From assembly GCA_002502295.1 (NCBI GenBank), contig DANX01000014.1, positions 1 through 47,485 of the forward strand: a DNA stretch of 47,485 bases, read 5' to 3'. The translations under genes and the position numbers were made by a program. The DNA is from Euryarchaeota archaeon UBA561. Its GTDB lineage: Archaea > Thermoplasmatota > Poseidoniia > Poseidoniales > Poseidoniaceae. Shown here in pieces: positions 2-3,906 of the stretch. Position 1 is the stretch's first letter, and the number at the start of each line of letters is the position of its first letter. Under the pieces are notes generated by a model, which saw nothing but the letters and a program-made list of their open reading frames with translations, was not told the origin of the DNA and did no database searches.

Positions 2-1951
2 CCCACCCTCGATGATGCGGTGGATTTTATTCGGCTTGAAACGGTTCAAGAACCCGGCCTGGGTGCGCCAAAGCAACCCACATCGGTGTTGGTAAAACGG
101 GATGAACACTCCTCAATGGCTTCGATGTTGTCAGGGGTCCAACGTGCGTTTAACCGCATGGACCCGGACATTGTGCTGACCGCCGGGGGAGATCAACGGT
201 GGTTTCCTTGGTTGGTTGAGCAAACCAGAGTTCATGGACGAACCTTGACTCTTGGAAGAACATCAACGCCTCTGCAGCGATCAACGAATCAACGCACGAT
301 TCACTCGTATGGACAAACCCGTCATCGACACGGAGCGTTCTTTTTGGAAGGTCGACTTCACCTTGATGTAAAGAACAGTTTCATCGTAAACGAGGGTGGG
401 CTTGCCGGGTTGTTTGAGCTCGCACAACATTCTCGGCAGTCTGCTCAAATCATTTCCCGTCTCTCTCCCGGTTCGGTCATCAGCGCCATCCAGATGCGCG
501 TCGCCATGGATGACGGCGTCCTTGTTCCATGGAAAAAAAACCGTCCTGAGGACACGAAGTCAGCCCTTGATCTCCTCCATGCAGACCGTGGTGGATTGTA
601 TTTAGACAGCAGAACCGGCGTCCATGCATCCGTCATTGAACTTGATTTTGCGAGTCTATTTCCAAGCATCATCGCAACCAGAAACATCTCTCCTGAAACG
701 TTGAATTGCTCGTGTTGCCAATCGCCTTCATCAAATCATGCCGGTGCGATTGTACCTCTGCATCCCGAAGAAGCCGTCCAAGAATTTCGTGAGCGGAGGG
801 TGCGTTCGGAATTTGGCCATGGCCTCTTTCCAATCGTTCACAAAAAATCCCTTACTGTGCCTGGATTGAACATGCATACTTGCGGCCGGATGCATGGATT
901 TCTAGGCCGTGTGGTTGCTCCGCTGATCGAGCGTCGCCGAATCCTGAAGCAGTTGCGAAAACAAAAAGGTGATGCCTACGATTTGCGGCAAAATGCACTG
1001 AAATGGTTGCTAGTGACATGTTTTGGGTACACCGGTTATCGAAATGCCCGGTTTGGACGTATCGAAGCCCATGAAGCGATCTGTGCCTGGTCTCGAGATC
1101 TTCTTCTGACCACGATTGAAGCCGCCCAGGACGATGGGTGGGACGTACTCCATGCCATCGTTGATTGTGTTTGGCTCTCTGACATTCGTGGGCGTTCAAA
1201 GCAACAGCAGCGCTTGGATGCTGAAGCATTTGCCCAGCGCCTTTCGTCCCGTGTTGGTATTCCCCTTGAATTTGAAGCGCATTACGATTTCATTGCTTTT
1301 CTACCAAGCCGAATGCACGGTTCTGGTTCACTGACGAAGTATTGGGCGTACGACGGTGAATCATTCAAGGTACGAGGTATTGAATTGAGGCAACATTCAA
1401 CGCCGCAGTGGGTTCGAACTCTCCAACAACATGGATTGGAATTGCTCGCTGAGGGGGAGCGTTCCAATGGTCTTCCATCTCAGCGTACACAGCGGTTGGT
1501 GTGGCGACATTTCCGGGCGGAAATCCGCCGATTGGCTAACGGCCTTGTTCCGTTGGAGGATCTTGTCATCACGCGCCGAACAAGTCGGACATGGCAGGAT
1601 TATCGCGTGAAGAATTTGACCTATGCTGCTCTCCTGCGAGCCCATGAACGCGGCTATGAGGTCCCACCCGGCGGTAAAGTGCGGTACGCTGTGTTGAACC
1701 GTTCATCTGAGCAGTTGTTGGAACGGGTGGTCTTGGCCGAGGAAGTGGACCAGTATGCTGGGCCCGGCACGGGTTGCGTGAGTCACTATGGTGAACTGGC
1801 TGAACGCGCCATCTGGGCGCTTCTCGCTCCTTTCGGATGGACTTCTGACCAGTTGCGCAACGGTGGGGCCCAACCGAACCTTCTGTCGTTCATGGTTCGC
1901 GATGTTGGAGCGGTAGGGCATCAACAGGAACAGGGACCTTTGGACGATTGA
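2..1951 (+). CDS. Family B DNA polymerase, 5'-truncated by the window edge; divergent, with degenerate exonuclease motifs
   Basis: The reading frame is open from nt 2, so the listed GTG at 20 is not the real start. PolB motif A is 'IELDFASLFPSIIATRNISPETL', the motif B region is 'KWLLVTCFGYTGYRNARFG' and the motif C region is 'VLHAIVDCVWL'. The Exo II region 'RMDPDIVLTAGGDQRWFPWL' aligns by eye to the Pfu-type '[20 protein letters not shown]'. Confidence 0.85.
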   Translation, partial: PTLDDAVDFIRLETVQEPGLGAPKQPTSVLVKRDEHSSMASMLSGVQRAFNRMDPDIVLTAGGDQRWFPWLVEQTRVHGRTLTLGRTSTPLQRSTNQRTIHSYGQTRHRHGAFFLEGRLHLDVKNSFIVNEGGLAGLFELAQHSRQSAQIISRLSPGSVISAIQMRVAMDDGVLVPWKKNRPEDTKSALDLLHADRGGLYLDSRTGVHASVIELDFASLFPSIIATRNISPETLNCSCCQSPSSNHAGAIVPLHPEEAVQEFRERRVRSEFGHGLFPIVHKKSLTVPGLNMHTCGRMHGFLGRVVAPLIERRRILKQLRKQKGDAYDLRQNALKWLLVTCFGYTGYRNARFGRIEAHEAICAWSRDLLLTTIEAAQDDGWDVLHAIVDCVWLSDIRGRSKQQQRLDAEAFAQRLSSRVGIPLEFEAHYDFIAFLPSRMHGSGSLTKYWAYDGESFKVRGIELRQHSTPQWVRTLQQHGLELLAEGERSNGLPSQRTQRLVWRHFRAEIRRLANGLVPLEDLVITRRTSRTWQDYRVKNLTYAALLRAHERGYEVPPGGKVRYAVLNRSSEQLLERVVLAEEVDQYAGPGTGCVSHYGELAERAIWALLAPFGWTSDQLRNGGAQPNLLSFMVRDVGAVGHQQEQGPLDD

Positions 1952-2711
1952 CCTGCGGTGAAGGCACATGAAAACGTGTCTGTAAATCGGTATTGAAGGG
2001 TAGCCACTGGCCTGCTGTTCCCGTTTGAAGATGATGCAAGTGAAGTGACCGTCGTCGCCGCCGTCCTTGCCACATCCCTTCGAGATGGTTTTCTGCGTGG
2101 CGTTGGACGTACTGAACATGGCGAGTATCCGTGAAGGGATCCTCTGCCCTTCCTGTGATGGCGATCACCGCAGCTTGTTTTCGATGCGCAAGTTCACGCA
2201 AGATGTGAACATGGCGCCGTAGTAGGGTGCGCGACTCCAATGACGATATGGCGTCGTCGTTGTGCATGGCCAGCAATCCATCGACAACGACCATGGGTGA
2301 ACGCGTGATGGCGAGTTCATCCGATAAACGTTCAAGTTGACGGTCAAGCTGATGCAGCGTGAAGCCTCGGCTGAGGTACAGACGAGCAAGACAGGCCTCA
2401 ACATCCGCTTCTAAAAATTCGAGAAGAGGGATGAACCGTGCAGGATCAATTCGGCAGGCCCCGTCAATCCAATGCACAACTTCTCCACGAGCAAGCGCAT
2501 AGGCTACCCAGTGCTCGCTAATGTCTCGCATGGTTTTTCCTGCAGGTCCAGGGCCGCTCAAATGGTAAATTTGTCCTTGAAACGGTTGGATGAGGGCAGG
2601 GTCGATGCCTCGGTGTTGTTGCGTGAGGGCGAAGATTTCCAAAGATTCTGGCGGGTCGGTTTCCATGTGAATCATTGAAGTCCGATTTTGGGGGTCGTCT
2701 ATCCTTGTCAT
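1890..2711 (-). CDS. RecA-fold P-loop ATPase (RadA/KaiC/ImuA-like); function unknown
   Basis: Walker A is 'HLSGPGPAGKT' and the Walker B-like strand is 'SPMVVVDGLLAMH', with RecA-like spacing. The C-terminal tail is Arg-rich ('GRRRRRS'). The start is ambiguous (ATG at 2711, 2675 or 2666). The 3' end overlaps the polB 3' end by 62 nt (convergent). Confidence 0.55.
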   Translation of the reverse strand: MTRIDDPQNRTSMIHMETDPPESLEIFALTQQHRGIDPALIQPFQGQIYHLSGPGPAGKTMRDISEHWVAYALARGEVVHWIDGACRIDPARFIPLLEFLEADVEACLARLYLSRGFTLHQLDRQLERLSDELAITRSPMVVVDGLLAMHNDDAISSLESRTLLRRHVHILRELAHRKQAAVIAITGRAEDPFTDTRHVQYVQRHAENHLEGMWQGRRRRRSLHLHHLQTGTAGQWLPFNTDLQTRFHVPSPQVNRPKVPVPVDALPLQHREP

Positions 2712-2775: not shown

Positions 2776-3906
2776 GTGGTCGATGAGGTTAGCAGCGTTG
2801 AGGCCACCGGCCCTCGTATTCTGATCCACTGCGACTTGGATGCGTTCTTTGCTGCGGTTGAAACCATCCATCATGGGTTTGATGAATCCATCCCCCTCAT
2901 CATCGGGTCCGATCCGAAACAAGGCCGTGGGCGTGGCATTGTATCCACCTGCAATTATGCAGCCCGTCAGTTCGGTATCCGTTCAGCCATGCCCGTTTCC
3001 GAGGCATGGAGGCGTTGTCCTGCCTCCCCTTTTGGACCCGGAGTCTACATCCGGGGAACGCGTGGCCTTTACAGTCGAGCCAGTCGAAAGGTGATGGATT
3101 GCCTTCGTGCGCCTGCCGTGTTGTTTGAGAAGGCCAGCATTGACGAAGCTTACCTTGACGTAACGGAAACGGTTGACGGGGATTGGGATGCTGCTCTGGC
3201 TTTGGCTGGTCAACTCCAACAGGCGATCAGAGAAGCGGTCAATCTCACCGCATCCTTTGGCATCGGACCTACACGGATCGTGGCGAAGATGTCGAGCGAA
3301 ATCAACAAGCCCAACGGCATCTTCAGAGTCATGCCCGATGAGGTTTCCCTCTTCTTTCATGGGCGGTCACTGCGCGATATTCCCGGCATCGGTCCAAAGC
3401 GAGCCACGCAGTTGGCGGAGTGGGGTTATACCACGGCCGATGAGCTCTATGAATTGGGTGAACTTTCTCTTTCACGGCTCACAGGGGAGCGGTTTGCAGA
3501 ATGGTTCATGCGGGTGGTCGACGGGGAAAGCAGTGCCGTCGTCAGCCCTCTGAGAAGCCGTAAGTCCGTCGGAAAAGAGCACACCTTTGAGCAGGACCGT
3601 GACAACCACGCTGAAGTGCTAGAACGGCTTGAACAACTGGTCCACTTGGTGATGGAGCGAGCTAAACATCTGGGCGTTTCGGGTCGGCTTGCCGAGGTAA
3701 AGATCAGATACACAGGATTTGAAACACACACCTCCGGTCGCAGCATACCGGTTGCGATGGACGATGAATCCGTGTTTAAGCGGCTTGCTCAGGTTTTGTT
3801 CGCAACAAACATTCAGCCCGATAGTCGGGTGCGACTCATTGGCTTTCGACTCGGTCAGTTGGAGATGCCGCCATCTCGTCAAACGACGTTGTTTGAGGAA
3901 GAGTGA
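2776..3906 (+). CDS. dinB: Y-family DNA polymerase IV (DinB/Dpo4)
   Basis: 'ILIHCDLDAFFAAVE' carries the catalytic Asp pair and the steric-gate aromatic. 'ASIDEAYLDVT' is the catalytic DE motif. 'LTASFGIGPTRIVAKMSSEINKPNG' and 'IPGIGPKRATQL' (HhH) are also present. GTG start, 13 aa upstream of the conserved core. Confidence 0.9.
   Translation: MVDEVSSVEATGPRILIHCDLDAFFAAVETIHHGFDESIPLIIGSDPKQGRGRGIVSTCNYAARQFGIRSAMPVSEAWRRCPASPFGPGVYIRGTRGLYSRASRKVMDCLRAPAVLFEKASIDEAYLDVTETVDGDWDAALALAGQLQQAIREAVNLTASFGIGPTRIVAKMSSEINKPNGIFRVMPDEVSLFFHGRSLRDIPGIGPKRATQLAEWGYTTADELYELGELSLSRLTGERFAEWFMRVVDGESSAVVSPLRSRKSVGKEHTFEQDRDNHAEVLERLEQLVHLVMERAKHLGVSGRLAEVKIRYTGFETHTSGRSIPVAMDDESVFKRLAQVLFATNIQPDSRVRLIGFRLGQLEMPPSRQTTLFEEE

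Follow-up and report, generated by a model that had tools for sequence, protein, structure and literature searches.

Background

Among described systems, the closest to the locus reported here is the PolB2 system of archaea, one member of which, Sulfolobus islandicus Dpo2, has been studied experimentally. Dpo2 is an active family B DNA polymerase without 3'-5' exonuclease, which carries I-I-D in motif C and shows robust nucleotide incorporation (PMC8764526). It is accurate on undamaged templates and poor at insertion opposite lesions, and it efficiently extends primer ends that are mismatched or paired with a lesion (PMC8764526); within PolB2, damage-induced expression and lesion extension are known for Sulfolobus Dpo2 alone (PMC8764526). 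At the sequence level, the B2 group has been described as having an Exo I motif that is not conserved and as missing Exo III altogether, and a D(K/R) motif marks the B2 and G2 polymerases (PMC7544198); absence of the exonuclease site is also part of the definition given in PMC11791011. In the models published in the latter study, the segment holding the D(K/R) loop binds iRadA as well as the arm of PPB2, a small three-helix protein with an "MGRT" arm that includes Arg3 and Arg9. Here we describe a polymerase gene (polB2) at the start of a 47,485-nucleotide stretch of DNA (the window; contig DANX01000014.1 of Euryarchaeota archaeon UBA561, positions 1 to 47,485 of the forward strand), the product of which very probably serves as catalytic subunit in a PolB2 "mutasome" of this Marine Group II (MGII; Poseidoniales) archaeon.

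The polB2 gene and its partner genes

The window corresponds to contig C85 of a metagenome-assembled genome of 1.95 Mb that is 85% complete. The polB2 open reading frame (ORF) in the window (positions 2 to 1951, forward strand) represents codons 182-830, i.e., the final 649 codons, of a gene for an 830-aa protein, its 5' end being missing at the contig start; the truncation thus reflects the contig start rather than biology. Codons 1-181 precede the window and are found only on contig C1, which carries codons 1-214 (locus L002, positions 958-1599). The last 101 nt of contig C1 (L002 1500-1600), which lie inside polB2, are identical to positions 1-101 of the window, and the first 33 residues of the window ORF are found again at the end of contig C1 with 100% identity; the two contigs could be joined in the assembly at this overlap. 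The joined reading frame is open for 830 codons and encodes a protein that begins with MRMVEGW. Residues are numbered here according to a full-length reference (P0002), which shows one substitution as compared to the joined protein.

Relatives with 76-85% identity to the window-encoded part are 828-834 aa long and come from Candidatus Poseidoniales, i.e., MGII. The product matches Pfam PF00136 (E 7e-21). The Pfam model DNA_pol_B_exo1 did not match the full-length protein even at E values up to 1, and was thus unusable for placing the Exo motifs. An AlphaFold2 (AF2) model (mean predicted local distance difference test [pLDDT] score of 92.7) gave whole-length Foldseek matches to the KOD, 9N and Pfu polymerases, with template modeling (TM) scores of 0.68-0.76; as modeled, the protein adopts the family B polymerase fold in full size, with a complete domain order.

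The identification as PolB2 is based on motif C, the D(K/R) motif, a PPB2 gene upstream and a RadA-core gene downstream. Motif registers were obtained with HMMER against the Pfu, Tgo and KOD chains and with hhalign against a profile of 27 canonical PolB3 sequences from the same phylum, and conservation was counted among 97 aligned PolB2 family members unless another set is named. Motif C (HAIVDC, positions 1151-1168, forward strand) aligned on Y(I/S)DTD(G/S), with Ile in place of the first Asp and only the distal Asp (D569) retained, as the initial annotation of this sequence had it; it also matches the motif C row published for PolB2 ("HGIIDSLWV / IID"). The distal Asp was present in all 97 members, and none carried Asp at the first position (Ile in 81, Leu in 10, Val in 3, Met in 2 and Tyr in 1). 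The D(K/R) motif, represented by D376 and R377, ends an invariant loop located before motif A (DGVLVPWKKNRPEDTKSALDLLHADR, positions 512-589, forward strand). D376 was found in 97/97 members and position 377 was Arg in 77 and Lys in 18 (i.e., a basic residue of either kind in 95/97), and the whole loop block was invariant in 26 MGII orthologues.

Directly upstream of polB2, contig C1 encodes an 89-aa ORF (L002 702-971) that overlaps the start of polB2 by 14 nt, counted from its ATG. The N-terminus of this protein (MGRSVPSWR) resembles the published PPB2 arm, residues M1, G2, R3, V5 and R9 being invariant in 42 sequences, and its model (pLDDT 91) shows a free N-terminal arm followed by three helices. 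This ORF is preceded on contig C1 by one resembling D-2-hydroxyacid dehydrogenases. A scan for bacterial promoters and terminators upstream of PPB2 found nothing, although these models are not applicable to archaea.

On the other side, a 273-aa RadA-core gene of the iRadA family (positions 1890-2711, reverse strand; Pfam Rad51, E 2.6e-4) is convergent with polB2, so that the 3' coding ends overlap by 62 nt (1890-1951). Most other Poseidoniales loci, among them those closest to the window, likewise show the polymerase match and the RadA-like ORF overlapping, by approx. 10 to 150 nt. A profile of this RadA-like family matched the ATPase core of Pyrococcus furiosus RadA (E 5e-19; residues 111-289 of 349, E 1.7e-18) and includes no N-terminal helical domain.

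Iterated searches with hidden Markov models for both neighbors in 80 related loci recovered 69 ORFs of the 89-aa family and 71 ORFs of the 273-aa family flanking the polymerase. The order iRadA-PPB2-PolB2 on one strand was observed in Thermoplasmata, Methanomassiliicoccales, Bathyarchaeia, Hadarchaeota and a Halobacteriota genome, while in Poseidoniales the genes run PPB2-PolB2, with the RadA-like gene inverted behind them. A supplementary table of a 2025 paper already lists the operons of Poseidoniales and Poseidonia sp. as type 3b (PPB2-PolB2-iRadA).

Polymerase site

The initial annotation had aligned the protein by eye to a Pfu-type enzyme and proposed that it kept motif A, had non-canonical motifs B and C, and lacked the acidic residues of all three exonuclease motifs. 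All six motif strings that it quoted are contained in the frame-2 translation at the places given, and profile alignments, a kind of check that it had recommended, upheld four of the six registers (HMMER and hhalign). In both alignments motif A (DFASLFPSII, positions 644-673, forward strand) fell on DFRxLY, with D396 as metal ligand and F401 at the steric-gate position, and motif B (KWLLVTCFGY, positions 1001-1030, forward strand) fell on KxLANSxYGY, with K515 retained and Asn, Ser and Tyr replaced by Val, Thr and Phe, respectively. These replacements are a property of the family: KW(L/I)LV(T/S)(C/S)FGY in motif B and H-x-[ILV]-x-D in motif C were present in all 97 members and in about 130 nearest cluster representatives (50% identity), and the 150 nearest such representatives had this motif C form and KW(L/I)LV..FGY.GY in motif B in common. 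The motif blocks were identical in 26 MGII orthologues that are otherwise 47-81% identical to the window protein, and D396, K515, D569 and the K/R-Y motif were invariant or nearly so among the 97 members.

These patterns bear on whether the protein could be a PolB paralogue devoid of catalysis that serves only as a structural part of a complex for replication or repair. Other residues stand in place of the first Asp of motif C, the Asn and Tyr of motif B and the exonuclease carboxylates, and it was this pattern that led the authors of a 2008 paper to propose an inert protein for this family (PMC2527604). On the other hand, Sulfolobus Dpo2 incorporates nucleotides robustly with I-I-D in motif C (PMC8764526), primer-independent family B polymerases without the first Asp are also active (PMC7544198), and the metal- and triphosphate-binding residues D396, D569 and K515 are invariant in the 97 members, which a structural role alone would not need. 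We thus regard an inert protein as improbable. The initial annotation had left polymerase activity as either retained or reduced to a structural role; the Sulfolobus data, together with the invariance of D396, K515, D569 and the K/R-Y motif, shift the balance towards activity being retained.

Exonuclease-like domain

Exo II was read correctly: GGDQRWFPWL (positions 185-214, forward strand) aligned with NGDxFD in both HMMER and hhalign, so that W248 takes the place of the catalytic Asp, while D245 within this remnant is a conserved, non-catalytic Asp. Position 248 was occupied by Leu, Ile, Val, His, Trp or Phe among the 97 relatives. The registers proposed for Exo I and Exo III, for which HMMER was of limited help as its local alignments to solved PolB chains pass over both regions, did not hold. 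The string taken for Exo I (FIRLET, positions 26-43, forward strand) corresponds, according to hhalign and DSSP, to strand 2 of the exonuclease-like beta sheet, and its positions are not conserved among orthologues. Two profile-profile alignments located the true Exo I strand upstream of the window (HVVKMEVKF, P0002 residues 168-176); hhalign aligned the canonical (L)SFDxE strand with it, so that E172 stands in for the Asp and K174 for the Glu. Consistent with this register, DSSP assigned residues 168-175 (Exo I) and 188-195 (FIRLET) of the AF2 model as strands 1 and 2 of the exonuclease sheet. The Exo I positions held almost any residue among the 97 relatives.

For Exo III, the initial annotation had proposed a substituted motif, a pairing that conflicts with HMMER; the region is instead approx. 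45 residues shorter than in canonical enzymes. The string in question (VNEGGLAGLFEL, positions 386-421) belongs to a segment consisting of the GRLHLD strand and a single following helix (positions 350-421, forward strand), which represents a shortened exonuclease part at what is the Exo III site in canonical enzymes. HMMER paired ELAQHSRQS..SRLSPGS with QLSRLVGQS..SRSSTGN of Tgo and KOD, i.e., with the helix after Exo III, and the stretch from "LGR" to "LSR" spanned 50 profile positions as compared to 95 residues in solved PolB chains. The spacing from D303 to S333 was 29-32 residues in all 97 members. With hhalign, a narrow and a broad profile disagreed, one placing F308 and E312 on the Exo III Tyr and Asp and the other leaving the motif in a gap, and we therefore assign no residues as equivalent to Exo III.

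The two misplaced registers leave the interpretation unchanged. None of the 97 members was acidic at the Exo I Asp, the Exo I Glu and the Exo II Asp together, so that the loss of the exonuclease carboxylates stands, and no orthologue among them restored the canonical motifs, which would have pointed to sequencing or assembly artifacts. The view that this is a proofreading-dead, specialized or translesion synthesis (TLS) enzyme rather than a replicase is also supported by the PolB2 marks in sequence and gene context. This TLS interpretation is supported but offers nothing new, a TLS role being established for the type member.

Phylogeny and distribution

A FastTree phylogeny of 68 operon-type polymerases and 27 PolB3 sequences of the phylum separated the PolB2-like group from the 27 canonical PolB3 (Shimodaira-Hasegawa-like support of 90), with a long branch between the two; one ORF in the PolB3 set (L112) is not a polymerase and sits on a branch with a length of 6.3, which did not affect the split. 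PolB1, the experimentally studied Dpo2 and the sequences from haloarchaeal megaplasmids were left out of the tree. Within the PolB2-like group, the window protein fell in a Poseidoniales clade with 100% support. As this clade divides into Poseidoniaceae and Thalassarchaeaceae groups, the tree suggests that PolB2 has been inherited vertically within Poseidoniales.

Two observations were made outside this clade. On a contig labeled as from a Chitinophagales bacterium (CAZJYO010000107.1), DinB is encoded upstream of an operon with the order iRadA-PPB2-PolB2, the polymerase of which sits on a long branch together with sequences from Hadarchaeota and Bathyarchaeia. Either this contig is archaeal and was mis-binned, or it belongs to the bacterial G2 group. 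In addition, relatives with approx. 30% identity, annotated as "type B DNA-directed DNA polymerase", were found on 116 haloarchaeal megaplasmids; haloarchaeal PolB2 is often plasmid-borne.

The megaplasmid location of these haloarchaeal relatives and the horizontal movement already known for PolB2 would fit an alternative reading, in which the enzyme serves not chromosomal repair but a mobile element such as a casposon, virus or plasmid, or acts as a second replicase. At the present locus, however, the same gene order recurs in at least 29 Poseidoniales genomes, the clade follows the Poseidoniaceae and Thalassarchaeaceae split, the neighbors are the dehydrogenase and a valyl-tRNA synthetase, GC content is flat across the window and no element genes were seen beside polB2, all of which make an origin of this kind very improbable. 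Pseudogene decay or faulty assembly, as might be feared for a gene split over two contigs of an incomplete metagenome-assembled genome, can be dismissed as the source of the non-canonical motifs, given the exact 101-nt contig overlap, the open joined frame of 830 codons, full-length orthologues with 76-85% identity (over the window-encoded part) in many independent assemblies and motif blocks invariant in 26 orthologues.

Points weighing against the PolB2 assignment

Several results count against identifying the locus as a PolB2 mutasome. The polymerase scored below the cut-offs of the NCBIfam models for type B DNA-directed DNA polymerases (NF004418, 392 bits vs. a cut-off of 692; NF004416, 370 vs. 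516); running these models in named control genomes did not reveal an organism matching NF004418. The RadA-like gene lies on the strand opposite to polB2, and the missing ATPase residues by which iRadA is recognized are not missing from the window copy. A complex prediction for PolB2 residues 150-830 with the RadA-like core scored 0.50 as compared to 0.00 for the best control, which speaks for the assignment but is rated by the prediction tool as weak support, with a pLDDT of at least 80 for the partner and a contact agreement between runs of at least 87%. Furthermore, the link to Dpo2 is made through common motifs, partner genes and the published table, the studied Dpo2 being outside the tree, and activity is carried over by analogy from distant Sulfolobus proteins of much smaller size. 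Even with these points taken into account, we consider the PolB2 assignment very probable.

Additional features of the polymerase and its neighbors

Four cysteines (C417, C419, C420 and C475) flank an insert of approx. 55 aa after motif A (positions 707-883, forward strand, the codons being at 707-718 and 881-883). They were conserved in 97/97, 96/97, 93/97 and 97/97 members, respectively. C420 and C475 align with a Cys pair of Pfu PolB, and none of the four is found in the canonical PolB3 of the same genome. A metal site or disulfide bonds formed by these cysteines are conceivable.

Near the C-terminus, the sequence QPNLLSFM (positions 1871-1894, forward strand) resembles a PCNA-interacting protein (PIP) box; hhalign aligned it with QATLFSF, the terminal motif in the PolB3 of this genome. 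Among the 26 MGII orthologues, L808 and Phe or Tyr at position 811 were found in all and Q805 in 15. The tail that follows is disordered, with pLDDT below 50 for residues 818-830.

Beyond the RadA-like gene, and divergent from it across a 64-nt spacer, the window carries a dinB gene for a Y-family polymerase of the DinB/Dpo4 type (positions 2776-3906, forward strand; Pfam IMS, 3e-35; IMS_C, 1e-18). A dinB gene occupies the same place in 17 Poseidoniales loci and is absent from that place in Thalassarchaeaceae-type loci and in one Poseidoniaceae subclade. The available part of the supplementary text of the 2025 paper does not mention this adjacency.

Elsewhere the genome encodes a canonical PolB3 (contig C97, 918 aa) with FSFDLE, NIDNFD, YCVRDA, KILMNSFYG and YSDTDS, as well as PolD DP2. 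As both are present, the PolB2 paralogue need not replicate the chromosome.

The RadA-like protein encoded in the window contains Walker A (GPGPAGKT) and Walker B (VVVD) motifs. Poseidoniaceae-type copies show GxGxxGK[ST] and the Walker B Asp, the Lys of GK[ST] being present in approx. 15 of 27, while Thalassarchaeaceae-type copies and all copies from outside Poseidoniales have a 3-residue deletion in the P-loop and Ser or Gly in place of the Walker B Asp. With the Lys retained in approx. 15 of 27 copies only, the motif may be what is left of a site in decay and no longer functional.

Proposed function

By analogy with Sulfolobus Dpo2, the MGII PolB2 protein would be an active polymerase without proofreading. 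As in the published AlphaFold models, a trimer of PPB2 and a single RadA-like subunit would join it in a complex, docked on the invariant loop that ends in D376-R377, and the C-terminal QxxLxxF motif of the polymerase may tether it to PCNA. The complex would then extend primer ends placed opposite a lesion by a Y-family inserter, for example the product of the neighboring dinB gene, while PolD and the canonical PolB3 would replicate the chromosome.

A more specific possibility, which we consider unlikely, is that the Poseidoniaceae RadA-like subunit still binds or hydrolyzes ATP, since its Walker A and B motifs are kept and the P-loop is deleted in every other iRadA, and that the RadA-like gene and dinB are co-regulated through the 64-nt region between them, yielding an ATP-regulated module of a DinB inserter and a PolB2 extender. 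If true, such a module would follow the logic of Pol V with RecA-ATP more closely than that of the published PolB2 model.

Comparison with known systems

The motif pattern observed here equals the published definition of PolB2 and the Poseidoniales operons have already been tabulated, so the locus does not represent a new kind of enzyme. What is new are small details of the lineage, i.e., the length of approx. 830 aa, the inverted and overlapping RadA-like gene, the retained Walker motifs and the adjacency of dinB; a literature search found no paper whose text treats PolB2 together with Marine Group II. The results nevertheless identify a damage-tolerance polymerase set (PolB2, PPB2, a RadA-like protein and DinB) of abundant, uncultured archaea of the ocean surface, and they provide PolB2 as the correct annotation for a gene that is usually annotated merely as "DNA polymerase domain-containing protein". 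The Walker motifs kept in the RadA-like partner are the sole point that could repay an experiment.

Compared to the S. islandicus system (Dpo2, PPB2 and iRadA), the MGII polymerase shares a motif C with the distal Asp alone, the D(K/R) motif, an unconserved Exo I and an absent Exo III. Also shared with Sulfolobales PolB2 are a PPB2 with an MGR(T/S) N-terminus, an adjacent RadA-core gene and the order PPB2-PolB2-iRadA. Unlike Dpo2, the window protein has approx. 830 aa, a complete N-terminal domain and an exonuclease-like domain that is full-size but catalytically empty. The loci differ as well, in that the RadA-like gene of the window is inverted and overlaps the 3' end of the polymerase gene, its product keeps Walker A and B, and there is a PIP-like box on the polymerase and an adjacent dinB.

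Canonical PolB3 enzymes (Pfu, KOD, 9N and the copy on contig C97) are similar in overall fold, motif A, the K-x-Y-type motif and the C-terminal QxxLxxF; unlike PolB2, they have intact FDxE, NxxxFD, YxxxD, KxxxNSxYG and DTD motifs. Eukaryotic Pol zeta (Rev3), an analogy drawn in PMC11791011, would be comparable as a multisubunit B-family enzyme with a dead exonuclease domain that acts as extender after a Y-family inserter. It is not an orthologue, though, its accessory proteins are different and its Fe-S C-terminal domain is not found in PolB2. Finally, the Escherichia coli Pol V mutasome (UmuD'2C-RecA-ATP) is likewise a TLS polymerase with one RecA-family subunit, but there the catalytic subunit belongs to the Y family, an active filament supplies the RecA subunit and the complex is under regulation by ATP.

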